Origin: Octopus vulgaris
Taxonomy: Eukaryota
Reading direction: 5' to 3'
NCBI GenBank assembly: GCA_951406725.2
Contig: OX597829.1
Span: 10,292,001-10,356,000, forward strand
Length of the DNA stretch: 64,000 nt
Shown: in pieces, positions 4,886 through 64,000 of the stretch
Layout of the letters: every line of letters starts with the position of its first letter
Position numbering within the stretch: the stretch's first letter is position 1
Translations under genes and position numbers: made by a program
Notes under the pieces: generated by a model
What the model saw: only the letters and a program-made list of their open reading frames with translations
What the model was told of the DNA's origin: nothing
The model's database searches: none

Positions 4886-5182
4886 TCAGATTTGACTGCT
4901 TTGCTTAACTACAAATCCGCCTTCATTGTATAGAGAGTTATGATTAAAATACGCTCCGTCAGTGCCCAACTCTTTCCCTAGACGTATCAGCCCCAGCACC
5001 ACATCATCTAACGTGGGCTTTTCTAAGACGGTGCAATGAGATTTGATGAGGTTTTCATTGCTATTTCTAGAACATCGAACGCCCACTTAGAGGTCCTCTC
5101 ATTAATATGTTTGTGCGCGTATCTACGTCAGTGTATACACTCATGTTGAATTTATATACTAATATAGTTTTCTATCCGCTTT

Positions 5183-5391
5183 TATTCTCTTTCAGTGATT
5201 TGACTGTGGCCATACTGGAACACCGCCTCAAAGGGATTTAGTTGAAGAAATCGACTCAAGGACTTATTCGTTTTAAGACTAGTACGTATCCTATCGATCT
5301 GTTTTGCCAAATCGCTAACGTACGGGGCTGCAAACACACCAACACTGGTTGTCAAGCGATGGTGAGGGGAGACAAACATAGGTACAAAGAC

Positions 5392-5435
<44 letters not shown>

Positions 5436-5935
5436 TAATATCAGGGTAGAAAAAATTTAGAGATTTTTACTACCTGTGGCCTAGTGTGCAGAAAAATTAG
5501 TCAATAGACTATATATTATTCATATAAATACAGTGTACATTTAAACACATAAGAGGTATCCACCATAGGATTCCTTGCATTCTAGAACGAATAGCCAAAA
5601 TCCAAACCTCTATTAGGTATAAACTTCGAAGGGAATGAAAAATAGTAAATGTTATTAGTTTTCCTTCCTTTCGAACTTTATCCCTAATGGTGGTTTGGAT
5701 TTTAGCTGTTCCTTCTAGCGTGCCAGGAATCCTATGATGGATACCTCTTATGTGTCTAAATGTACACTGTATATATATATATATACGACGGGCTTCTTCC
5801 GTTTCCGTCTACCAAATCCTCTCTCAGGGCTTTGTTGGTCGGCTTAAGGCGCTAGTAGAAGATACCCAAGGTGTCTCGTAGTTCGACTGAACACGGAACT
5901 ATGTGGTTGGGAAAAAAAGCTCCTTACCACACACA
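5183..5935 (-). mobile_element. tRNA-derived SINE (family A) split by an insertion in its internal (TA)n
   Basis: 5785-5935 matches the head and 5183-5400 the tail of the copy at 17534-17937, on the reverse strand. Confidence 0.75.
5430..5771. mobile_element. (TA)n-flanked non-coding element with a 120-bp-arm hairpin
   Basis: Arms 5529-5648 and 5652-5771 are reverse complements (104/120 identical, no indels, 3-nt loop). Preceded by a ~100-bp leader containing GTGGCCTAG. Confidence 0.8.
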
Positions 5936-8060
5936 CACAAACTTAGAGTGTATACGAAAAGTATAATGCGTGTGTTTATAAGTAGGTATGATTATTCAGG
6001 GAAAATAAATGAAATTGATACTGTAGACAAAAGGGTTTAAATTTTCTTAACTAACGTAACATCGATGACTTTGGAGTTATGTAGGAGTTGATTCAGGTGC
6101 GCTTTCAACGATGAGTGCTCGGTCGTTCGATCCGCTAAGATCCTACCTGTGACATTAGTACGTAAATGACTGAATATTTCACACCTGTGTGGAATAACGT
6201 GATTCGAGTGTATAATCATGACACGTTGTGACAAAGCTGCATGTTGGAATTAAAGATACAGTCCAGTGAGAGGGAAAGAAGAGGACAAAGGGAGAGAAGG
6301 GGAGATGAGAGTGAGGAGAGAAGAAGAGTGGTAGAGAGGAGAGAAGAGAGAGGCAAGGTGGGGTGAGGAAGAAGGAGAGAAGAGAAGGGAAAGAGAGAAG
6401 AGAGAGGGAGGATGAGAGGAAGAGGAAGATGGGAGAGGGAGAAGGAAGGAAGTGAAGGAAAAGAGATAGGAGAGAGGAGAGTGAGAGAGGCGGAGAGAGA
6501 TGAGGCAAGATTACAAATCTAAGATTCCGAATGGTCCCTACATGTTATCTCCCTAGTTATTTATCGACGATGCTGAATGGATTAGAAGCAAAACAGGGTT
6601 TGAAAACAGAGCCGAAACTAAGAGCAAAAGGCATTCTATTCGACACGCAAACAGTTATGTCGATTCTATGTCTACTTGATGACAATAAAAGGACGCAGGC
6701 GTATAGCGAGAATGTTTGCTTCGCAAACCACGTAGATCTGGATTCAATCTCACTGCGTAGCAGGTTTTACTATAGCTTGGGCCATACCAAAGTCTTGGTT
6801 ATAAAACAGAAATAAGTGTAGAAGATGATCGAGGCCTTGAGTAGCAGGCATCATCTATTGTAATGTTTAACGCCACAATCCAGTTCGTTGGTGCCTTTAG
6901 AAGAATCCACTCTGTTTAATACCACCAGGTGGTTCTCTGGTTCGTTAGTATCATTCTACTACAAATCTTACAACTACTTCTCCAGTTTGAGAACAACTTT
7001 CTCCCTCTTCCTCCCGCCTTCTTCCCGCCATTTACAAGGATCCTAAATGGAGCATGGATGCTCCTTTTTTTTTATCCCTGACTAAACCGTAGGAAAAGTG
7101 ATTTGATTGCAGGTTGTTTTTAAAAGCGTGTGTGCATTTAATCAAAATCGTCTTTTGACGATCCTAATCCATATGGAACTTCTGAATTGCTACACCAAGA
7201 TTATAAACTTAATATTCTGAACTGAAAAAACTTAACATCACCAAGATAGTAGTTTAAGATAATTACCTACCGTATAGCATGTGCAGTTTTATCACAGTGG
7301 AAACAACTTATTTGCACAGTTAACTTCTTAGCCACGCCACCACATCAACGTAAACTGCTATATTGTCTTCATAAAATTGTATTGCTCTGTATGAGTTATC
7401 CATATCAGCTGTAAATGAAGACAGGCGTTATTTCCAAGAAACAATTTGCAATGGGAAAATGAATGATAATGCACAAGTCTGCCTTCTTTGTTAAACAGTT
7501 GTTTTTATCTTCTATATATTAAATTATTTAGGTTTAGATGCTAGCGATAGCTTTGAATTTAACTTTCACATGAACAGCATCTTCATTTGTCTTTTACCTT
7601 CTCAACACTTATTAAAATAAATCAATGACTAAATACCATGAATAAGTTACTTACTGTTGCACTCTAATCAGTTACATACACACTTTTTTTTTTACCTTTT
7701 CAATCTCTCACTCTTCTTCAACAGTTGCTGTTGCATCTGCTCCTCAGTGTTGGCCCCTTTGTGCGATATACACTCAAGGCAAACCGGGTTAACTGTCTCT
7801 TTTCTTTTTCTCACCCTTGATATGCCACCACCCTCAAGCACGAATCAAACACAACTATCTAATCTTTCCTCTCAAGAATGTCATTTTGAGGGAATATCTT
7901 CCCTGACCATGTTGTAGCTGCAACCGTCAACTTCCTACTATTGGTAAGCCTCTTAATTAGCAACAACACTGATATCTCTGTCTTGAAGTGACTGACAACA
8001 GTATGGCACCAGAATATTACCGGTATTTAGACCCTCACACACATTCACACTCACACACAC

Positions 8061-8092
<32 letters not shown>

Positions 8093-8177
8093 GCACGCAT
8101 GCACACAGGCAACTAATTACTAAATGACGCTCGTCACAGCCGCTTGTCAAAATGCGAAACATAAACCTAAATTTTAT

Positions 8178-8560
8178 TAGTGATCCGCAGTAATCGATAT
8201 CTAACAGCTAATGAACCGCTGTAACAGAATCAGTGAACCACGGAACTATTCTATATTGATACACAGAACTGCAGTAGTCGATATACATTAACCAATGATC
8301 CAATCTAATCGATATACAATAACCACTGGTCCACTCAATCAATATACAATAACCACTGAACTGCTGTAATCAATATACAATTGAGCCAATGTAATCGATA
8401 TGCAATAACCAGTAAACCACAGTAATCAATATACTGTAACTACTGATCCACAGTAATCGATGTACAGTCTTCACCGATCCATTGTAATCGATACACAAAT
8501 AAATCGTCAATAGCTGTAATCAATATACAGCAACCTGTAAACAACTCGTATCAATGTACG
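8178..8560. repeat. Diverged ~31-bp minisatellite with conserved TAATC(G/A)ATA core
   Basis: About 11 copies of the core; consensus approximately gatccacagtaatcgatatacaataaccact. Confidence 0.8.
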
Positions 8561-9545
8561 GTAAGAACTGAATTACTGCATGCCTTATTAGTACACTAAT
8601 TATTTTCATTAAAGAAGAAAACTATACGAATTTTATGAAAACATAAAAGTATATAAAAAAGGTTAATAATTATATCACTAATGATTCGCTCTTGGTGATC
8701 TTTTTTTTAACCAAGTCGGTTACACTTGGCAACTGAAAAATGATCCTTTGACACTCTGATAGTGTAGTTTCAAACAATTGATACACTTAAGTATCCTCTG
8801 TCTGGTGGCTCATCATCTACAGTTTATTTCTCTTTAGAAATGTACAAAGGTATCTAAGACAATTTTCGCTAAGTTTATGATTAGAAAGCCGAAGATTTAG
8901 ATGGGAAATATTTCTTCCTTCTACTCACATTGAACAGTAAATATGATTGAACTATAAAACTATTTTTGACACATCTCAAAGTACAATAAACTTTATATTT
9001 TTAAGGTAAACAAATTAAGGAGTAAAATACAGAAGGAGGAATTATCTCCTCTAAAAATATCGTCCATTAATTGAAATAGTTTTAGTTGGAGAAACAAAAA
9101 CGATAATTGTTAAGAACTCCCGCCGCAAAGGGAGATAATTTGAAGAAATTGTGAATTCATTTCACAAAATGAATTTAAAGGCTCCGGGAAAAATCTATTA
9201 CATTCCTAATTTGTTTTTAAATTATTACCTTTGGAAAATTCTTTTATGTAAACTACCATCCTATTCTAACATTAAAAATAAAAACTCCTTAGTCTGCTTT
9301 AGTCAATTAAAGCTTTGTTATTGCTTGCCTTTGGTTTCAATAGAGTAAAGCAATATATATATAGCAATGGGCTTCTTTCAGCTTCTGTCTACCAATTCCG
9401 CTGACAAGTGTTTGGTCGGCCCGAGGCTATAGTAGAAGAAAAGTTTTTTAAAATAATATTTGCGCAGTATTCAAATACAAGTGGCATTTTCCTTGTTTCT
9501 GTCTATCTCTGTCTCTCTTGTTTACTCTTGTGGGTTCGAGGTCGT

Positions 9546-9576
<31 letters not shown>

Positions 9577-11666
9577 ATGAAACTGAAGGTAATCGGTTAT
9601 ATATGTTTACACTATATATATGTTATAAGTAATAATAATCAGTCAATATTTCGGCGGCGAAATTGTAGTAATGATAATGAAGTACAATTCAATAGGCTTG
9701 CACCTAGACTATCTAGTTATATATAGCATCATGAAGATATATCATCTAGTTATATATGCATATTTTACAGTTGACATTAAACAGCTGAACATCATTAGCC
9801 TGAAGAGCTCATTTCAAATACTTTCAACTGATCGAAGTCCCAGCGTTGAAACTGAATCTTTGGTATCGCGGATGTTGGCACACCTTTGATGCAAGTCTGA
9901 TAAAGTGCTTCTCTAACGTCTAAAACCGCAAACATTTCATAAATTTTCATTTCGAATCTTTGCGTAAACAGGTGTTGGAAATAGAATCGGTACAGAAGCA
10001 ATTGTAATGAATCATTAAAGATGTGTTACAGTATTTTCCTTGATTTCTTCTTTTTATTTGGTGGGGGTGGGGTGGTGCTGAAACGTTCCTGGCTTTGTGT
10101 AAAAGAAACTAGAGGAAGATCAGTTAATTATCATTTAATTCAACTTATTTCTCACTCAGATTCACACATTGCAGTGATCCTTCAGTTTTTCTAAGCCTTG
10201 TGAAAGAAGTAGGAAGATTGGGCCTCCAACGAGTCTTTTCACGATACTCTTAAAGCCAGAAGCTTTACAGCACCTACCCGTATATATGTGATGGCTAACA
10301 ACTCGTTTGATGAGTAAGACTATGGCTGACTAAATAAAGTGCGTCACAGAATTACATTTTATGAGAAAGACGATGGCTTTTAAATCTTACAAGCGATTCA
10401 CAGAACTTGTTACAAATTCGACATTCATACAAATTCTTCTGACTTCTTGGTTATTCCGGATCATTCTGATGATTTCTCTGTGCATTTTCTATGCACCCTC
10501 ACATGTATATATTCAAAGTAGAAAGCCAGGAGTTGTGAGAGGCGAAAAGAAATAACCACATGACTCATATGATTACAGCCGTTTCGCAACCCGCTTCAAA
10601 TATTCTCCCAGTCTGTAGAAATGCCTAGTCTGTAAAAAGATTCACTGATTACTTCATTTCATGCCTGAAACTTAACCTAGAGATTCCAGAAAAAGAAAAC
10701 CATAAAATTATAATTACCAGACTTAAAAATTAAATCTTAGGGGTCGTTATGACCTGTGAAATCGTTGAAGGCGGTGCCCCAAAATATCTATAGTCCAATG
10801 ACTGATATAAATAAAAGCGTTATGCTGTGATAAAAGTTTTCCCTGGTTCAAAATTCTAACAGTAGGGGATGATGATGTAAACTATTAAGATCACAGAGAG
10901 AAGAAATACGATATGAGGCTTGAATTTCACACAGAACACTACTAGCTGATATGTTTCTAGTCTTTTAATTGAATGAGAGGAAACCATTTTAGGGCAAGTA
11001 AATGTTTTGAAAGATAACATGATATAATAGCCGTACGCACGCACGCACGCACACACACACTCATGCACATGCGCACGCACATAGACATACACACATACAT
11101 ACATAGATATATATATGAGCATACAAATATATAGTCGGTTACAAAAGTAGGTGTGTACTTTGCAGGAAAAGGGGATCTTCGTCGTTCAAGGATGAAGAAT
11201 TAGTTATACGGCATACTGAATTACCTTCTCCTAAACTTGAAAGTGGTTGACTATTCCTTAAACACGTGTAACTTAAGGTAATTCGTGAGGAGATTCAACG
11301 TGACACGGCGTGTGAGAAGTCTGTACTCTTTTTAATTACGTTCATATATACATACATTCAATCACACATGCGTTCATACAGGTACACGCTCACGCACACA
11401 CATATATGCATATATATATATATATATATAATTGATGCACTTGTCGTGAACGACAAACGACGGTTCAGTAAAATGAAGCGTTAATAGTGTTCTGTGAACA
11501 GAAATATGTCTCTTTCGGCAAATGGAACAAGTTGAGCATTCAGTTTGCTGAGTGCTTGCAGATCATTTCCTATGTGTTCTGTTAAGTAGATGGCAAGACC
11601 GAAACAAAAAATTATAGTTTATGCGTCTCGAATCAAACCGATAGAAATCTCTAAAAAATTCGTTAT

Positions 11667-11725
11667 TACCGTATTGGTCCAATTTCGGGGTTAATTCATA
11701 AGAAATTTCCCCATCTTCAGCGGCA
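11667..11725 (-). ncRNA. Minimal type I hammerhead ribozyme
   Basis: Minus strand reads UGCCG-CUGAAGA-U-GGGG..CCCC-GAAA-UUGGACCAAUA-CGGUA. The core is conserved, with one extra U before stem II. Confidence 0.7.
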
Positions 11726-12245
11726 AATACGCCAGATATAAATGAAATACTTACTCATACCCATGGAAAAAGCAAGCACTAAGCCCCAAATATATCCAAA
11801 ATAGAAAAATCTTCGGCGCACCTCGAGACACGTTTGATTCGAACTAGAAACTTTCACAGAGTGAGAGAATCCGGAAGTGAACACTAATCTATTTATAATT
11901 AATATAGGATAAAATTTTTTTCGGGAAAAAAATTTTATCAATGGCCAGCATATCAAAAAATGCGTTTAAAGGTAAAATTTATACATAATTTACAAGATAA
12001 GGGCAGAAGAAAAATTCTGATGCCAAATATGCCGAAAAAAAAAATCTTATCCTATATTAATTATAAATAGATTAGTGTTCACTTCCGGATTCTATCACCC
12101 TGTGAAAGTTTCTAGTTAGAATCACACGTGTCTCGAGGTGCGCCGAATATTTTTCCATTTTGGATATATTTGGGGTACTTAAATCTGCTCAGGGCTTGCT
12201 TTTTCCATGGGTATGAGTAAGTATTTCATTTATATCTCGCGTATG

Positions 12246-12304
12246 TGCCGCTGAAGAGGGGAAAATTTCTTATGAATTAACCCCGAAATTGGACCAATAC
12301 GGTA
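12246..12304 (+). ncRNA. Minimal type I hammerhead ribozyme
   Basis: Stem I UGCCG/CGGUA, CUGAAGA 12251-12257, stem II GGGG/CCCC, GAAA 12285-12288, palindromic stem III AUUGG-A-CCAAU. Cleavage triplet AUA, predicted cut after 12299. Confidence 0.85.
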
Positions 12305-12483
12305 ATAACGAATTTTTTAGAGATTTCTATCGGTTTGTTTCGAGACGCATAAATTATAATGGTCATCAACAATTCTGCCCTTATCTTGTAAATTATGTAT
12401 AAATTTTACCTTTAAAGGCATTTTTTGATATGCTGGCCATTGATAAAATGTTTTTCCCGAAAAAAATTTTATCCTGTATTAAT

Positions 12484-13212
12484 TATATATATATATATAA
12501 AACTCAACTTGTGTGTCTGTGTGTGTATCTGTCTGTGTGTCTGTGTGTTTAACTTTCCCAGCACATCTCCTCCTAGCTATTAAATGGTAGAACCACCAAA
12601 AATGGGTCACTTAAAGTTTAGACGAATGAAAATTGAACTGCGCTATTTCTGTTCCGAAATTCTTCTCGCAAGTGCAAAAATCGATAATGTGTTTGTTTAG
12701 GCCTTATCCCATGCATTGAATAATGAACTTTACTCAGTCAGCTGTTTGACGTGAACTGTGTTCACCACGCGTGCAAGAATGCGTAAATTGCATGAAAAAT
12801 ATTAAAAAAAAAAGATGTAAAAACGAATCGCCGTAAACATTGTAGAAATTCGGCAAAGAAAGGAATTTTCGGGATGTAGCCAGAAGGGTTTCTTCGTATT
12901 AATCGTTTGGACTTTGTGAACACATACCAATTGTTTTCATAACATTTTTAACACTTTGAATTAAATGTGACCATTTTGCGTTGAGTCTGCAGTTTGAATC
13001 AATTTAACCAAATTTTAGCAGGCCGGATTTTTGATCATCACGATACATCGCCAGCGACTCCCTGAAACTCTCCCATGAAATCCCCGTTGAGAAATCTATA
13101 TTTATAAAACTCAACTTGTGTGTCTGTGTGTGTATCTGTGTGTGTGTCTGTGTGTTTAACTTTTGGATCTACCAAGTTTCATTATTAAGGATGGAAAGTA
13201 GTGTGTAGCAAA
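12484..13212 (+). mobile_element. Helitron-like 5' segments (two extra 5' ends) stacked upstream of the Helitron at 13213
   Basis: The block tataaaactcaacttgtgtgtctgtgtgtgtatctgt...gtttaacttt occurs at ~12495 and at 13095, where it is preceded by A|TC. Confidence 0.55.
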
Positions 13213-13601
13213 TCTATATATATAAAGCTGAAGTTGTCTGTGTGTAGCAGGTTTGGTAGCCTTCAACTAACACTATCTCCTTCGAGACCCTGCAGCGCAA
13301 GTTGACCAAAATCGAGAGTATGATAGAAGAAGGCTTGCTCTTCATTCTGTTGAAGATAAAATTCAAATCGGATCATGTTAATACCAAAATTTATTTACAT
13401 CAAAAAGGTGCTTTTTTTCTATGAAAATCCCTATTTTTTACGATTTTTGACTGGTGTGTGACCATTTTTCGGTGTATTTCAACTGGTAAAATGTTCACTT
13501 GAAGAGAATAACAAGTTGCATAATGCAAAATTTTTACTTTTCAAAAATTCCAATTCTAAAAGGTCGAAACAAACCCAAGCAACACCGGGTGATACTGCTA
13601 G
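13213..13601 (+). mobile_element. Non-autonomous Helitron
   Basis: Starts A|TCTATATATATAAAG and ends with a subterminal hairpin (cccaagcaacaccggg) plus CTAG|T. No TSD. Confidence 0.8.
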
Positions 13602-13748: not shown

Positions 13749-13812
<64 letters not shown>

Positions 13813-13814
<2 letters not shown>

Positions 13815-13972
13815 CGATGGGCTTCTTTCAGTTTCCGTCTTCTTTCAGTTTTCTTTCAGCTTTGGTCGGCCCGAGGCTATAGTAGAAGACACTTGCCCAA
13901 GGTGCCACGCAGTGGGACTCAACCCGGACCGATGTGGTTTGTAAGCAAGCCGCTTACCACACAGCCACTCCC
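13813..13972 (-). mobile_element. tRNA-derived SINE family A, 5' part
   Basis: Reverse complement of the head with A/B boxes and ccttgggcaagtgtctt. Confidence 0.8.
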
Positions 13973-17045: not shown

Positions 17046-17533
17046 TATATACCTATAAATGTGTGTGTGAGAGTGTGTGTGTATGTATGTATAAACTACA
17101 TACATGGGTACGTTATGGGTACGTAAACACACCAGCATCGGTGGTCAAGTGATGTTGGAGAAATTGTATATAATGGAGAAATTGTATATAATGGAGAAAT
17201 TGTACAAAATGTATAAATAGATGATGAGTAAAGCACCGGCAAAGTTTCGATTCCCTGTTGTTATCCGTAGATTTACTGCAGGGACTTCGTAGAGGCGGTT
17301 GGGTTAACAGTATTAATAAAATAGGAGATGGAATATGTAATAGACTTTATTGGGTGCAACACATGTTTCGACCCTCTCTGCGTCTCAATAAAAATCTCAT
17401 TAGATATTTCTTGAGTTGACTTACGTACCATCAATTCGAGAATGAGTAAAATCAAGGAAAATTTACTGAAATGCAAAAAATTCAAATATGAACGTGGAAA
17501 GTATACTATGTATACTATATATACTATAATATA

Positions 17534-17937
17534 GGAGCAGGAATGGCTGTGTGGTAAGTAGCTTGCTAACCAACCACATGGTTCTGGGTTCTGTGTTCAT
17601 CCCACTGCGTGGCATCTTGGGCAAGTGTCTTGTGCTATAGCCCCGGGCCGACCAATGCCTTGTGAGTGGATTTGGTAGACGGAAACTGAAAAGAAGCCTG
17701 TCGTATATATGTATATATATATGTATGTGTGTGTTTGTGTGTCTGTGTTTGTCCCCCTAGCATTGCTTGACAACCGATGCTGGTGTGTTTACGTCCCCAT
17801 CACTTAGCGGTTCGGCAATAGAGAGCGATAGAATAAGTACTGGGCTTACAAAGAATAAGTCCCGGAGTCTATTTGCTCGACTAAAGGCGGTGCTCTAGCA
17901 TGGCCGCAGTCAAATGACTGAAACAAGTAAAAGAGAG
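17534..17937 (+). mobile_element. Full-length tRNA-derived SINE family A (resembles octopus OR/OK-type SINEs)
   Basis: A-box tggctgtgtgg, B-box-like gttcatccc, cttgggcaagtgtctt domain, internal microsatellite and tail gactgaaacaagtaaaaga. Multi-copy in this window. Confidence 0.85.
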
Positions 17938-17947
17938 TATGTATATG

Positions 17948-21177: not shown

Positions 21178-23258
21178 CATTGCTGCCCAACGTCCGGCCC
21201 ACGAAGCCTTAGAATCCGGCCCGCTAGTCGGTCTTCAATTTATGGGTATCTGCGAAACAAATTACAAAAAAATGTATTCGTAGATCACAAAAAATCACAT
21301 TAAAGTATCCTTTTTATGTTGAGGAAGTGTGCTACACACAGGTCTTCTCCATACGTCATTATGAGACGTGATTCATCTGCGACAGAGATAGTTTTAAGCA
21401 TGCTGAGTCAGCTGCTGGCCGTGTTGTGGATGAATACCGATTTTCGGTGGCTGAAAACTGTAAAATCAAGCCGGCTCAAGCCAGCAGCCAATCACGACAT
21501 CGCTCAGTCAATGGGAAAATTCACCGCCTAAGAATTTCGATAGATTTTGAGCTTGAAGACCGATTCTCGGTGGATGAATGAATAATTCTATAAAACCGGC
21601 ATTTGAGATGATTTAATTTCAAATTTACTCAGGCACAACTTTTGATACGGAAAGAATATAAGAATACCGAAGAGCAAATTACAGTAGTTTCTTTTTCATA
21701 ATAAATTTCAAATTTTGTTCATCCATGGCATCGGCTAGAAAAATCAGAAAAGTAGACAAGGAGAATCGCAGGTTTAACGAGACATGGACAAATTTATATT
21801 TCTTTGTGGAATCAAATGCAAAATGTCTCTGTCTGACCTGTGGTGAAACAATCGCAGTTCCAAAAGTTGAAAATGTGAAACGGCATTACACATTAAAGCA
21901 CGCTTCGACCCATAATCGTTATGAAGGAGATCAACGCAAGGAGAAAGTACTTTTACTTCAAAGGAATTTAGTCTCGCAACAGAATTTTTTTGGAAAATAG
22001 ATGATGGATCGAAAAAATACGCCAAAGAAATTTTCGTCATTGCTGAAAAGATTACACGCAACATGAAACCTTTTTCGGAAGGAGACTTTATCAAGGAATG
22101 TATCACCTCGGCGATTGAAATTCTGTGCCCAGAGAAAGAGTAAACTATAAAATGTGTTAGCTTGTCGCGTAATACAATAACCCGAAGGATTGAAGAACTG
22201 GCCGAAAATAAGAAAATGCAGTTGAACGAACTTTGTAAAAACTTCGAAACTTACAGCATTGCCATCGACGAATCTACTGATATGACTGATACGCCACAAC
22301 TGGCGATTTTCGTAAGACGTGTTGATTCAAGTTTTAATATCACTGAAGAATTACTTGCTTTATGCCCGATGAGAAAAAATTACACAGGTGCTGCTGTTTT
22401 CAAAGAAATCGATATTGCACTCGAAAAGGCGGGACTGACTTACGATCGCCTGGTGGGAATTGCTACCGATGGTGCACCGGCCATGATCGGCAAGAAACAA
22501 GGCTTGAGTGGTATCATCCAAAAAAAAACTGGAATCCTGAATGTGAGTAAAGACCAAATATTGTGGTACCATTGCATTATACATCAGGAATCACTTTGCT
22601 CCAAAATAATTAAGTTTGATCACGTCATGGATAATGTCGTGAAAGCTGTCAACTTCATTCGGAGTCGCGCGTTAAATCATCGACAGTTTCGAAATTTTCT
22701 CGATGAGATAAACGCCGAATTTTCTGGCATTCCTTACTTTACCGAGATCAGGTGGCTCAGCCGTGTTCGTACTTTGAAACGCTTTTACGATATTCAAGAA
22801 CATGTGGCAGCATTCCTTGAAGCAAAAGGAAATTTATGCATCAATTTTGATGACGTCAAATGGATGAAAGCCATTTATTTGATCAAGTGTTTTTTAAATC
22901 TTGATCAATTGTTAAATTTGTTTTATAGGATGTAAGGTTCTAAATCAAAATTTGTAATGGTCATTTCGTATTCATATAATATCTGGAGACTATAATTTTT
23001 TTGATAGCAGAGAAGAAGTAATAGAAATAGTATCATATGTAGGACCCCTATGTTTAAATTGAGTTATGAATTATAATTGCATAATGGATAATTTCTATAA
23101 ATAGAATAATAGAATCAATGTTTTCAGTTCTGAATACTTTTTCAAATCATTTCAAATAGTTGTATTAAAAAATGAAAGGCTAGAAATGTGAGTCCGGCCC
23201 ACTATCATCGTTTTTTTCTTAAATCCGGCCCATGTTCGGAAAAGGTTGGTAAGCACTG
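21178..23258 (+). mobile_element. hAT DNA transposon (Charlie/SPIN/GTF2IRD2-like transposase), defective
   Basis: Perfect 8-bp TSD GGTTACAA (21170-21177 and 23259-23266), imperfect TIRs CATTGCTGCCCAAC / GTTGGTAAGCACTG and subterminal ccggccc repeats. Confidence 0.92.
21725..22935 (+). pseudogene. hAT transposase pseudogene
   Basis: BED-like CLTC..HYTLKH, SIAIDESTD, ATDGAPAMIG, HCIIHQESLC and RWLS motifs. Stops and frameshifts; C-terminus lost. Confidence 0.88.
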
Positions 23259-36529: not shown

Positions 36530-38090
36530 ATAAATTAGAAAAAACCCACCTTTTGTCAATTCAAAATGAACAATTAAATTACACCATCTAGAAAATTACG
36601 TATAATAGAAATATTAAACATAAAATAACAATAATATACCGATGATTAGGTAAATTGCAAAATAATAAATAAAATGTATATATTTGGTAGAATAACGACA
36701 CGTGTTTCGTGGCTATTTTAAAGAAATGATTATAGTAAAAAAATTAATAGTAGTAGTAAAATCACTTTGATATAAATATAGCCACTCCTCAGGTTAAAAA
36801 TAAACTACAATAATAAAATAATTAATTATTAAAAATACGTAAATAATCTTTTAAAATATAAATATATTCTTTAAATATATATATATAATATATATATATA
36901 TAAGATACTAAATATACATTAAGTGAAATCTAAATACTAATATACACAATGCTAGCACAAGCCATTAATATTGTAATCAAAATCAGAAATGATTCAAATA
37001 TAGACAAACTCATTAAATAAACTAACTATATAATTATATAATTAATATATATGTGTAGTTTCTATAGATTTAATATATAACTCAATAATATAGTTGACCA
37101 AATATCAATTAATATAAAACCTAATTTACCTAAATTTAATACTACTTATAAATATACCACCTAATTATTAAATAATATATTGTCTAACAAAAATTAATTC
37201 TCAAATTAAATTATATGTAATACATTAGATCCCTTTATAAAAATAATAATAAATCATTCTAAATAAATAGATATCATAATTAATAATATATAAATGATAT
37301 AATGGCGAAAATTATTTACTAATGAAAAGTAAGAAACACATCTAAGCCCCTTAAATTAAAGAAATGTGCAAAAATATATTAGAACAAATGAACAATACAC
37401 TATGAAGACATTCAGCTACAACCGACAGTCCACTACAAATCCAGTCAATGACAATAATAATAATAACAACAACAATCAAACTCAATAAAATACAAGTTCC
37501 AAATAAAATTGATAAACAAACAATGTTACGAAGTTTATCTATTAAATTAATCTATCTGGATTTTAAATGTATAAAAATAGGTTTTAGCTTCTTATTAATA
37601 TACCCAATGCTGTTACTAGTCATGAATAATATAATAAAAAAAAGGAAATGGTTCAAATAGACCCAAATCCATTAAATAAAATAACTATATTATTAATATA
37701 TATGTAGTATCTATAGATTTAATATTTCACATGATAATAAAGTTTAACATAATATTAATTAATATAAAAACTAATTTACTTAAATGTAATACTACTTAAT
37801 AAGAATATTACCTAATTATTAAATAATGTACAGTCTAACGAAACTAATTCTCAAATTAAATTATATGTAAAACGTTAAATCCCTTTTTAAAAATAAATAG
37901 ATATCATAACTATTAACGATCGTATATAATAACTATCAAGAAACTATAAATAAATAATATTTCAACAACAATAATAATAATAACAATAATAATACTGATT
38001 TCAAACCCTAAAACGATTCAAAATCCAAATGAAATAGATAAATAATAAAATGTAACTTAGCTTGTACACACATACATATAAAGATACATA
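36530..38090 (-). mobile_element. Very AT-rich, (TA)n-flanked non-autonomous element with a hammerhead and an internal ~270-bp direct repeat
   Basis: Hammerhead at 36693-36796; 36991-37280 resembles 37650-37910; no ORF. Confidence 0.55.
36693..36796 (-). ncRNA. Minimal type I hammerhead ribozyme
   Basis: Minus strand reads UAAC-CUGAGGA-GUGGCUAU...AUAGCCAC-GAAA-CACGUG-UC-GUUA. It has an 8-bp stem II, palindromic stem III ACACGUGU and a GUC cleavage triplet. Confidence 0.85.
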
Positions 38091-38488: not shown

Positions 38489-38769
38489 GTATATATATAT
38501 ATATATAATGTTTGTATGTATATATATATACATGTATGTATGATTATTTATATAAGTATGTATTTGTGCATCTGTTTCCACCCCCCACCCCACCGTCGCT
38601 TGACGACCGATGTTTTTGTATTTATCTCCCCGAAACTTAGCGGCTCGGTAAAAGAGACTGATAGAATAAGACCTGGGGTAGGTTTCTTTGACTAAAAGGC
38701 GGTGTTGCAATATGACCGCAGTCAAATGACTGAAACAAGTAAAAGAATATAAGAATAAGTATAAAAGGA

Positions 38770-45196: not shown

Positions 45197-46059
45197 TGGT
45201 GTGCACAAGCACAGTTCCACATAATCTTTATCACAATCTCTTGAACACTGTGACACATATATATACACACATACATACACCCACCTACACTCAATCTCAC
45301 ACACACACACACAGAGGAAAATCATCTTTAAACATTATATACAGAGAAGTGGTGATAAAGAAGTAAAGAGAGAGAGAGAGAGAGAGAAAGTGAGAGAGAG
45401 AAAAGGCGAGAGAGAGAAGGCGAGAGAGAGAGAAGGTGAGAGAGAGAAGGCAAGAGAGAGGGAGAGTGACAGAGAACGAAACAAGGAAAGAGAGAGAAGA
45501 GAAATGAGGAAATAGAGAGAGAGAGTTTATGTGGTTGTGTTTGAGAGAGAGAGAGAGAGAGAGATGGAGAGAACGAAAGAGAGAGAGTGTGTGTATGTGA
45601 GTGTGTGTCTGTGTGTATGTGTATGAGAGAGAGGGAGAGAGAAAGTTAGAGCAAGTGAAAGCTAAAGAAGAAGAAGAAGAAGAAGAAGAAGAAGAAGAAG
45701 AAGAAGAAGAAGAAGGCCAGGAATGTCATGATTTTGGAGGAGAAGTAAGAGAATGCATAAGAAGATGACGATGAAGATGAGGATTAAAAACTGGAAGAGA
45801 AGTACACAAAAATAAAGTAAAAAGAAATAAATGACAAAAACAAAAAAGGAAAAAGGAAACGAAAGCCAATTATTTGTATGAAATGTAGACTATGGCCGTC
45901 AGCAGTGCTCGAACAACGTTCGATGTGGTTCGACAGTCTTTCAGGAAGGTGGCAATTCTCACTTTGGGAACGAAAGAGAAAGACAAAAAATAGATAAATA
46001 AAAATAAAATAAAAATAATAGGTGATGATAATGATGATAATAATAAGTAAATAAACTGA

Positions 46060-47008
<949 letters not shown>

Positions 47009-51164: not shown

Positions 51165-51553
51165 CGCAGGAGTAACTGTGTGGTGAGTACCTTGCCTCCC
51201 AACCACATGGTTCTGGGTTCAGTCCCACTGCGTGGCACCTTAGGCAAGTGTCTTCTGCTATAGCATCGAGCCGACCAAAGTCTTGTGAGTGGATTTGGTA
51301 GACGGAAACTGAAAGAAGCCCGTCATATATGTATATGCGTGTTTGTGTGTCTCTGTTTGCCCCCCCCCCCCCTCCAACATCGCTTGACAACCGATGCTGG
51401 TGTATTTAGGCCCCGTAACTTAGTGGTTTGGCAAAAGAGACCGATAGAATAAGTACTAGGCTTACAAATAATAAGTCCTGGAGTCGATTTGCTCGACTAA
51501 AGGTGGTACTCCAGCATGGCCGCAGTCAAATGACTGAAAACAAGTAAAAGAGT
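51165..51553 (+). mobile_element. Full-length SINE family A
   Basis: Near-complete match to 17534-17937; B-box ggttcagtccc. Confidence 0.88.
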
Positions 51554-51655
51554 ACGCTTGAAAAAAAGGAAGTCTCGTATTCCAAAGCCACTCTGCATTA
51601 ACAAACAACAAAAACACACTGACTATATATGGCGGTGCCTTGTGAAAGCTACATA

Positions 51656-51901
51656 GGCGCAGGAGTGGTTGTGTGGTAAGTAGATTGCTCATAAACAACA
51701 TGGTCCTGGGTTCAGTCCAACTGCGTGGCACCTTGGGCTAGTGTCTTCTACTATAGCCACGGGCCGATCAAAGCCTTGCGAGTAGATTACAAAGGCTTAC
51801 AAAGAATAAGTCCTGGGGTCGATTTGCTCGACTAAAGCCGGTGCTCCAGCATGGCCACAGTCAAATGACTGAAACAAGTAAAAGAGTAAAAAGAGTAAAG
51901 A
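51656..51901 (+). mobile_element. SINE family A copy with internal deletion
   Basis: Head and tail present; middle missing after gagtagatt. Confidence 0.8.
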
Positions 51902-54336: not shown

Positions 54337-54712
54337 GGCGGCAGTGTGATAAGAAGCTTGCTTCCCAGGCAGATGGTCCCGGAGTCAGTCCCACTGCGTG
54401 ACACCTTGGGCAAATGTTTTCTGCTATAGCCTCGGGCCGACCAACTCCTTTTGAGTAGATTTGGTAGACGGAAACTGAGAGAAGTTCGTTGTGTACGTGT
54501 CAGTGTGTATGTAAGTGTGTGTGTGTGTCTTTGTGTCGGTGTTTGTACCCACCCTCTCCACTGCTTGATAACCGGTATTGATGTGTTTACATCCCTGTAA
54601 CTTAACAGTTCGGCTAAAAGGCTAGGATCAAAAAGAATAAATACTGGGGGCGATTCATTTGACTAAAGTCCTTCAGCATGGCCGCAGGCTGATGACTGAA
54701 ATAAGTAAAAGA
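54337..54712 (+). mobile_element. SINE family A
   Basis: Matches the other copies throughout. Confidence 0.82.
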
Positions 54713-54724
54713 TAAAACGTATAC

Positions 54725-62741: not shown

Positions 62742-64000
62742 CACTGGTCAACAAAATGAAACTTTTTTAATCATCAGAGATGCTGATTGACTTTTCTTGG
62801 TTAATTTTTGATGCTGATTACGAATCTGAAGTCCGATTTCCTCCATCAGGTCACATTTTCATATTAATGATACCTGCTGTTTTAACTTATAGGATACGCA
62901 AAGCATGTCTATATAAAGTATATTGAATACAAGATACAATAATTTCATGGCTTTTTATTGCACGAAATTAAAATTATTGTGTACAAATAAGTTAGAATAC
63001 ACTCAAATGCATAACAACTTGAAATCTTTGGGATTTGGACTTTCTATGGTGCTTTGTCTCAGGCTCATCCCTGTATAACATCCAACAGTAGTCAACTAAC
63101 ATTACTGCATTCCCAAATCCTTGATATTGTTGTTTCAACGATGCAATACCTTGATGAAAGTGTTCCTCTTGCACATCAGACACTGCTCCAAGGTTCTCTG
63201 CAAAAAAGTCCAGATGTGAATCAAGGAAATGGACTTTTAGTCACATCCAACAGCCCATTGCAGCGTAGGAGTCTAGAAGACATTTCACTCCATTTCTAAA
63301 TTCTAGAGATCTCTTGTTGCCTAGGAAATTTTCACAGAGCCATTTGAAGGATTCCCAGGCTTTAAGCTCAATCTCATCCAGTGCTGTTAGGAAGTGGTTG
63401 CCCTTCTGGAGTTCTTTTATCTGTGGACCTATGAATACGCCCTCCTTCAGTTTTGCCTCGGTGATTTCTGGAAATTTGGCATATTTCACATATTCAAAAC
63501 CTTTTGACCTTTGCCTGGCAAATGTCTTCACGAATTGTTTCATGAGGTTAAGCTTTATGTGAAGAGGGGGAAGAAGAACATTTTCTGGGTTTAAAAGTGG
63601 CTTACTCTGAACGCTAGAAACCCCCGGCTCATGATTTTCGCAAAGGCCGCTTTGGTTGCACATAGTACTTGTTAGTTGCACGCCTGTCCCATAGGCATAA
63701 AAAGCAACAATATTTTGTGAACCCAGATTGCATTCCCATCAACATTACAATCACCTTCAAGTCTCCACATATTTTCCAGCTGTAGTCTGTATACTTTATG
63801 GCTTTGAGGAGTACTTGCATGTGTTCATAACACTCCTTCGTGTGCACTGAATGTCCTATGGGAATGGATGGTTTCTTATTGCCGTTGTGTAGTAGTACTG
63901 CCTTGAGGCTTCTCTTAGATGAATCAATGAATAAGTGCCATTCGGCTGGAACATGCTCTTGGAACAAACAGCGAAATAACTCATCAGTGTTATTAATGAA
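62742..64000 (-). mobile_element. Chapaev3-like (CMC superfamily) DNA transposon, 3' part, defective
   Basis: WHLFIDSSKRSLKAVLLHNGN, ICGDLKV, CFLCLWD, LLPPLHIKL and KLKEGVFIGPQI. Terminus TTA|CACTGGTCAAC at 62742. Confidence 0.75.

Follow-up and report, generated by a model that had tools for sequence, protein, structure and literature searches.

Two inverted copies of a hammerhead-bearing repeat in Octopus vulgaris and their probable origin by Penelope-type copying

Two copies of a short repeat lie head to head in a 64-kb stretch of Octopus vulgaris DNA, here called the window, and each of them contains a hammerhead ribozyme motif. This raises the question of how the two copies came to be in opposite orientations and from what kind of template they were copied. 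The window is microsatellite-rich, animal-like DNA, with 145 tandem-repeat rows and fragments of LINEs. The element is an isolated insertion, there being no further piece of it in the rest of the window. It is a non-coding, hammerhead-bearing, multi-copy repeat. Both of the 2-kb bins that hold it have a GC content of 0.34-0.36 and the longest frame that overlaps it, counted from stop to stop, is of 82 codons, in keeping with the initial annotation, which had called it non-coding. It is probable that the locus is one insertion of a ~460-nt repeat, a non-autonomous derivative of Penelope-like elements (PLEs) of the type known as animal non-LTR retrozymes, and that a PLE reverse transcriptase (RT) copied an RNA longer than one unit into AT-rich DNA.

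Layout of the locus

The features identified are as follows.

11599..11610, minus strand: uncertain 12-nt end piece, either element end or target, from its likeness by eye to a family motif
11611..12041, minus strand: inverted copy, almost one full unit; it begins within the 3' module, spans the junction and has a hammerhead inside
11667..11725, minus strand: hammerhead (type I) within the inverted copy, with the core CUGAAGA at 11720-11714 and GAAA at 11686-11683; cleavage is predicted after 11672
11908..11939, minus strand: hairpin with 15-bp perfect arms adjoining the family's usual 3' end, from the inverted-unit copy and family loose ends at 11895-11926
12032..12041, no strand: inversion junction with 10-nt microhomology CCGAAAAAAA, which both copies share at their start
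12032..12488, plus strand: direct copy, one unit and about 35 nt of terminal overlap, from repeats and alignment
12126-12137 with 12340-12350, plus strand: predicted long-range stem of about 10 bp around the hammerhead domain, from circular MFE folds of both copies
12246..12304, plus strand: type I hammerhead of the direct copy, from descriptor and fold, predicted cut after 12299 (triplet AUA)
12442..12473, plus strand: hairpin immediately preceding the direct copy's 3' end, from repeat analysis
12480..12499, plus strand: (TA)n, in which the end of the element runs together with the 5' start of a Helitron-like neighbour, from repeat comparison

Three pairs of inverted arms are 95-96% complementary (11611-11784 with 12187-12360, 11784-11921 with 12038-12175, and 11887-12008 with 12373-12494; 174, 138 and 122 nt), bearing out both the coordinates and the claim of two inverted, permuted copies joined head to head. 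Pairwise alignment of 12032-12360 with 11927-11611 gives 299 matches, 15 mismatches and one 12-nt gap, and there are 6 mismatches between the 3' modules of the plus and minus copies. Overall the two are 95% alike, with 21 differences in 446 aligned letters plus two indels. The minus copy passes from the 3' module over the unit junction into the 5' module and, because it crosses this end-to-start junction, the copies are different permutations. The initial annotation had the minus copy cross the junction, as it does, and placed its limit at 12008. This limit has to be moved to about 12041, because 12009-12041 is at family depth; the family cover over the inverted copy has an abrupt onset at 11610 and extends to about 12045. 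Just beyond the other end, 11599-11610 resembles the U-rich CGG motif of the family in 10 of 12 letters, by eye.

Each copy has its own deletion. The inverted copy is missing 12 nt at 11783/11784 that are present in the plus copy and in other copies of the family, and the direct copy is shorter than other family copies by about 40 nt at 12372/12373. The ttatcc motif at 12047 is found again at 12469, and this spacing of 422 is the length of the plus-copy unit because of the loss of the 40 nt. The unit of ~420 nt originally proposed is correct for the spacing at this locus but not for the family, the unit of which is about 458-462 nt from the sum of bridges and indels. The direct copy continues beyond one unit, with 12038-12072 repeated at 12460-12494 as a 35-nt direct repeat. 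The length of this overlap may have been set by the microhomology and not by two RT start sites. One arm of the hairpin contains the microhomology (12032-12041), which is found in reversed form in the 3' module too.

At six sites (11705, 11887, 11890, 11899, 11904 and 11962) both copies share a letter where the family alternative makes up about half or more. One template and one event are favoured because the copies share letters at these variable sites. The 21 mismatches in 446 letters and the two indels would also be compatible with two separate insertions.

Hammerhead motifs, folds and variation

A search of the window with a descriptor for type I hammerheads gives two sites, both of which are in the element (cores at 12251 on the plus strand and 11720 on the minus strand). 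Across 150 block-wise dinucleotide shuffles the loosest setting gave a mean of 0.047 sites per window and two stricter settings gave none. Both copies have CUGANGA, GAAA, UH and three helices with helix I open, as is required of type I. In the plus copy, stem I is 5 bp (12246-12250 with 12300-12304) and leads to the core CUGAAGA at 12251, stem II consists of four G-C pairs with an 18-nt loop followed by GAAA, and the palindromic stem III has an A-U pair and 3 bp with a 3-nt loop. The AUA cleavage triplet is slower than GUC. In the minus copy the register of stem II is shifted by two private changes (11713 and 11709). The family has G at 11713 in 98-100% of the depth, thus it is the plus copy that has the common form of stem II, the register in the minus copy being shifted. 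Descriptor and fold agree on the complete hammerhead that had been noted at 12246-12304, including the cut predicted after 12299, and the minus copy has a hammerhead of its own, as claimed. A match to hammerhead models was not obtained: Rfam gives none in the 64 kb, at the gathering score or up to E 10, and the call was made by the descriptor. No other Rfam family reaches its gathering score in the 64 kb either.

Two other candidates were discarded. An Rfam match to MIR8007 (44 bits, with a cut-off of 195) simply reflects the inverted repeat. Donor-like motifs of an intron are present at 12211 and 12217, upstream of the hammerhead; the acceptor pattern applied gave no match and none of the listed joints skips the stretch. 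Further along, TTTTTTAG was seen by eye near 12313-12320.

In the monomer fold, the predicted pairing probability is 0.66-0.99 for stems I and II and about 0.1 for stem III, which is computed at +1.8 kcal/mol as a hairpin versus -8.9 kcal/mol as a self-duplex. As a monomer the hammerhead is predicted to have weak activity, and it would depend on a dimer or on the PLE protein. A dimer-dependent design is known for PLE and other animal hammerheads, which are poor cleavers in vitro (PMC4209133). The hammerhead of an anole PLE has been described as needing the protein for activity, and as not required for insertion (PMC11167929). For retrozymes of Xenopus, 1 of 9 dimers is reported to have been cleaved in vitro (bioRxiv 10.64898/2026.07.22.740005), therefore activity of the hammerhead cannot be assumed here.

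The 11 invariant core letters are without a variant in the best 40 of 56 variant rows, although with 33-40 variable sites in about 430 the chance of missing 11 core positions is about 0.4. Within the same best 40 of 56 rows there are two variants in stem I and both keep the pair. A loose end in run X9 represents, by eye, a subfamily with another letter at N7, a free position of the core. This pattern of variants is compatible with selection on the hammerhead and is no proof of it. Against the whole-unit fold the variants are mixed, with 9 pairs kept, 11 broken and 20 unpaired, and lend it no clear support. Conservation of the core and stems had been named as a check on the element; within those 40 rows it is seen in the core and in the stem I pairs, and not clearly in the fold of the whole unit. 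Folded as circles, the sense strands have z values of -4.5 (minus copy) and -2.5 (plus copy), compared with -1.4 and -0.4 for the antisense (40 shuffles). The range for all sense-strand folds is -1.5 to -4.5, with the linear fold at -3.5, and that for the antisense is -0.4 to -1.4.

Family copies, ends and target

The stretch or part of it is contained in 20 listed public runs with four organism labels from ten studies, the best of which may be the source of the window. Contigs were compared for 4 of 24 listed runs, over 11470-12060 at 82% likeness. Matching contigs number 4033 in DNA run X1 (organism A) and 3351 in DNA run X3 (organism B). Summed depth is 3e4-8e5 within 11610-12049 versus about 70 on the single-copy flank at 11470-11509; this gives an order of magnitude and not a copy number, and is taken as hundreds to thousands of copies. 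Further copies, among which the initial annotation had proposed to look for tandem and permuted ones, are abundant, with thousands of contigs; end-to-start joints occur in X1 and X3, and the element is not single-copy.

Among 13 listed family joints, 3 run back from 12044-12045 to 11611-11619 (X1 and X3), and in the best 12 of 18 rows there are 8 bridges from 12038-12045 to 11607-11619 with 11-22 extra letters. Since other copies also join end to start, the closed cycle is a trait of the family. The join is likewise not private to this locus because six contig records (4, 6, 14, 21, 22 and 30) cross the unit-junction region near 11887-11919. The 12 nt that are absent from the minus copy are seen in each of the four runs, in loose ends at 11783-11787. 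The left junction of the inverted copy is present without any difference in contig 1 of X1. In bioRxiv 10.64898/2026.07.22.740005 a retrozyme counts as active if two tandem units follow each other, both with a complete hammerhead. The locus here is head to head, and at 72-317 letters none of the listed contigs could reach from one hammerhead to the next. A change of strand occurs in 6 of the 13 listed joints, three of which have one side at 12009-12045; each is a single contig, and joints of low likeness can arise from repeats.

There is no RNA run on record among the listed public runs that contain the stretch. Two runs guessed to be RNA have 114 and 141 family contigs, with the single-copy flank uncovered. 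Coverage of the unit in X9 relative to X1 is about 0.0005-0.011, below that of an unrelated repeat at 11510-11549 (about 0.014), and argues neither way on expression; contigs carry no information on level, strand or ends. Exact-motif scans of metagenome contigs and viral contigs gave no match.

Loose ends before 11895-11926 make up 5 of the best 24 of 420 rows. This position corresponds to the 3' end of the plus copy, just past the hairpin with 15-bp arms. Four of the five rows pool 12-23 contigs with an agreement of only 0.59-0.66, and two contain (TA)n. The end signal may partly be local divergence, because there are seven variant rows at 11887-11904. No pile-up of copy ends is found at the cleavage site among the best 24 of 420 loose-end rows. 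The hairpin at 12442-12473 is likely to be the region in which reverse transcription started, by comparison with the stem-loop start described in PMC11167929. The outer end of the inverted copy, at 11611 or perhaps 11599, does not reach the usual 3' end of the family and lies about 150 nt from it, thus an internal second priming or a later deletion must be assumed.

An AT-rich or (TA)n target is present at the common 3' end, both at the locus and in family loose ends. The neighbouring repeat has paralogs at 13096 and 13214 that open with the same TA-rich motif (3 matches, with 0.04 expected), and one copy (13213-13601) is bounded by TC and CTAG, presumably Helitron termini. Because the (TA)n also forms the first bases of this Helitron-like neighbour, it is most likely the target. 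The association with (TA)n put forward in the initial annotation therefore stands, in that 3' ends of the family are often near TA-rich DNA, but the run at this locus is probably target DNA. No target-site duplication of more than 3 nt was found at the insertion.

Origin of the insertion and comparison with known systems

Neither copy starts or stops at the cleavage site, thus the site was intact in the template. Both copies run through it and through the unit junction, and the template was therefore either an uncleaved multimer or a re-ligated circle, which upholds the view that it was longer than one unit. DNA alone cannot tell these two apart. The kinship with Penelope and retrozymes that had been suggested is supported by the type of hammerhead and by the architecture of the insertion. 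PLE insertions are described as having an inverted, 5'-truncated copy, a tail of 30-40 bp and (TA)n targets (PMC8557442), and in vitro an anole PLE nicks AT-rich DNA and starts internally in a stem-loop (PMC11167929). Linkage to an ORF for a Penelope RT with a GIY-YIG domain had also been proposed as a check; no GIY-YIG is present among 16 scanned of the 88 ORFs of at least 120 aa in the window, and no long ORF is in or beside the element. This counts against copying by a PLE, the autonomous partner being putative, as do the lack of a target-site duplication above 3 nt and the outer end of the inverted copy.

The element is likely to be an animal retrozyme of the ordinary sort, with a Penelope enzyme as its copying machinery. 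The head-to-tail genomic units seen in contigs would be transcribed as multimers. Judging by the ends of the family, nicking of TA-rich DNA by the PLE protein would be followed by an internal start, past the terminal hairpin, with TA pairing to TA. The protein would then copy one unit and about 35 nt, past the intact cleavage site and the junction, as seen in the sequence. An inverted stretch of the same subfamily is joined at the 10-nt microhomology, and may have been added through twin priming or fold-back template switching. Twin priming is reportedly known for L1. The hammerhead would trim the multimers and might allow circles to form, and is dispensable for explaining the locus.

A doubtful, though not far-fetched, form of this explanation is that hammerhead cleavage gave a re-ligated circular RNA of ~460 nt and that rolling reverse transcription of it produced permuted copies longer than a unit; being a form of the preferred reading, it shares part of the probability assigned to that reading. 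Copies that cross both the intact cleavage site and the unit junction would be expected from a circle, and retrozymes of mussel, coral and axolotl are described as forming circles (PMC7229834). The sense strands fold as circles better than their shuffles, unlike the antisense. However, the linear fold is equally stable, linear read-through yields the same pattern because head-to-tail units exist in the DNA, stem III has a low pairing probability in the monomer, and uncleaved RNA is reported to be the dominant substrate of purified PLE protein (PMC11167929). That the pieces are truncated pLTR ends of an autonomous PLE, with no independent short element, is improbable. The hammerhead is of the PLE type (short stem I, G10.1-C11.1 and palindromic stem III; PMC4209133), the architecture is PLE-like (PMC8557442), and PLE hammerheads are mostly found in truncated copies (PMC4209133). 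Yet in the minus copy and at the start of the plus copy the hairpin leads directly into the segment upstream of the hammerhead, with the same continuation in contigs of all four runs (depth 35,039 at 11887 in X1), family contigs close the cycle on its other side as well, and the longest overlapping frame is that of 82 codons. An autonomous parent with the same ends as the element may well exist. It is very improbable that the family spread by satellite-like amplification at the DNA level, with the inversion added later by microhomology-mediated repair and the hammerhead an inherited relic. The 10-nt microhomology and the lack of a target-site duplication above 3 nt would fit such a history, and tandem amplification by unequal crossover has been discussed (bioRxiv 10.64898/2026.07.22.740005), but the insertion is isolated within 64 kb, the ends of family copies gather next to the hairpin and have mixed, TA-rich flanks, and changes of strand are met again at other loci.

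The preferred reading, an RNA longer than one unit copied by a PLE enzyme, concerns a class that has already been described (PMC7229834) and for which a PLE origin has been argued (bioRxiv 10.64898/2026.07.22.740005); the single locus, on its own, is an ordinary example of it. PLEs are considered a strong candidate for moving retrozymes (PMC7229834), while the mechanism of mobility is said to be still in need of working out (bioRxiv 10.64898/2026.07.22.740005). The movement of animal retrozymes has so far been argued from co-occurrence and kinship with pLTRs. What is added here is that the scars of insertion point to target-primed copying of the PLE type. With thousands of copies, a common 3' end and recurrent inversions in a family, such scars would become countable and the choice between multimer and circle as template would become testable. 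It is unlikely that the scars (a fixed 3' end at a hairpin, (TA)n targets, and inverted copies in another permutation joined by microhomology) go back to a re-ligated ~460-nt RNA circle that a PLE copied by target priming and that also served for twin priming of the second strand. If the template was a circle, this would be direct genomic evidence for a retrozyme life cycle that is proposed and unproven.

No description of a cephalopod retrozyme was found in the literature, in a search of main texts that lay outside most subscription journals. Among known systems, the Chlamys element MRC1 is similarly a non-autonomous passenger of PLEs, with pLTRs and head-to-tail insertions, but the Chlamys elements, including MRC1, are algal and belong to a clade without canonical hammerheads (PMC8557442). 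Pairs of minimal hammerheads on opposite strands, 100-700 bp apart, were noted in Schistosoma mansoni in 2014 (PMC4209133). The two hammerheads here are likewise on opposite strands, about 530 bp apart. The Schistosoma mansoni pairs were ascribed to truncated PLEs and have a helix II of 7-8 bp, whereas the unit here closes on itself, with 4 bp in helix II and with a helix III.

Endonuclease-bearing PLEs (Penelope/Poseidon, Neptune and Nematis) share with the element an inverted copy on the 5' side and perhaps a short terminal extension (PMC8557442), as well as an AT-rich or (TA)n target, a 3' end at an internal stem-loop and a palindromic helix III (PMC8557442, PMC11167929). The element differs from them in having no RT-GIY-YIG ORF. 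Its inverted copy does not extend to the usual 3' end, stopping about 150 nt away, and in this is atypical of the inverted pLTR of PLEs, and its hairpin is U/A-rich where the described start hairpin of PLEs is AC-rich.

The closest likeness in the sequence is to the animal non-LTR retrozymes (PMC7229834), for example the 350-390-bp repeats of mussels, which are also short, non-coding and low in GC, have one type I hammerhead per unit, form a head-to-tail family of very many copies and have a sense strand predicted to be self-paired. The locus here differs in being head to head, the words 'inverted' and 'opposite' being absent from the main text of PMC7229834. Animal non-LTR retrozymes are further characterised by expression as linear and circular RNA of monomer length and by the lack of an LTR, primer-binding site and polypurine tract; the only direct repeat in the element is the 35-nt overlap. 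The unit of about 460 nt is slightly longer than the 150-450 bp given in PMC7229834 and lies inside the range of 51-972 bp in bioRxiv 10.64898/2026.07.22.740005. As judged from its sequence features, namely a short unit, a GC content below 50%, head-to-tail arrangement and many copies, the element belongs with the animal non-LTR retrozymes.

Variants of the hammerhead repeat family

A single contig of the hammerhead repeat family (depth 85), from X3, the public DNA run of organism B, joins position 12038 to position 11738, so that the entire hammerhead domain is absent and the remaining cycle is kept. This contig is a ribozyme-free derivative, which probably originated by deletion. A subfamily carries one additional letter in the loop of hammerhead stem III, at window position 11678. 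This letter accounts for less than 1% of the depth in X1, the public DNA run of organism A, 8% in X3, and 19-30% in two runs guessed to be RNA.

The left flank of the probable retrozyme (11510-11580) is a piece of a different repeat, with a lower copy number. Summed contig depth in the public runs, which gives an order of magnitude only, is about 5,000-11,000 at these positions, versus about 70 on the single-copy flank.

Dispersed repeats and transposase-like fragments

Numerous copies of a SINE-like family, 70-93% identical, are spread over the window. These copies and the other repeated or transposase-like features are:

5179-5420, 5770-5933, 9353-9439, 13801-13971: SINE-like copies
17531-17945, 38532-38752, 51165-51891, 54340-54723: further SINE-like copies
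22144-22935: transposase-like fragment, weak DUF4371 match
36935-37257 and 37593-37907: direct repeat, about 320 nt, 80% identity, spacing about 655
45997-47006: (AAT)n array, 1 kb, 337 copies, internal strand flip
63241-63738: transposase-like fragment

The first transposase-like fragment has a hAT-like appearance; the second has no Pfam match. The hammerhead motif is absent from both copies of the direct repeat.

Neighbours to the right of the probable retrozyme

Two elements lie here:

12487-13163: 607-bp unit, TA-rich motif and (TG)n tract at its start, plus a 70-nt repeat
13213-13601: short element with TC at its start, CTAG at its end and A|T flanks

The 607-bp unit is followed by a 70-nt second copy of its own start (96% identical), and together they resemble a non-autonomous Helitron-like element in incomplete tandem. 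The 5' motif of the short element is related to that of this neighbour, and the two ends of the short element, with their flanks, have the form of Helitron termini.
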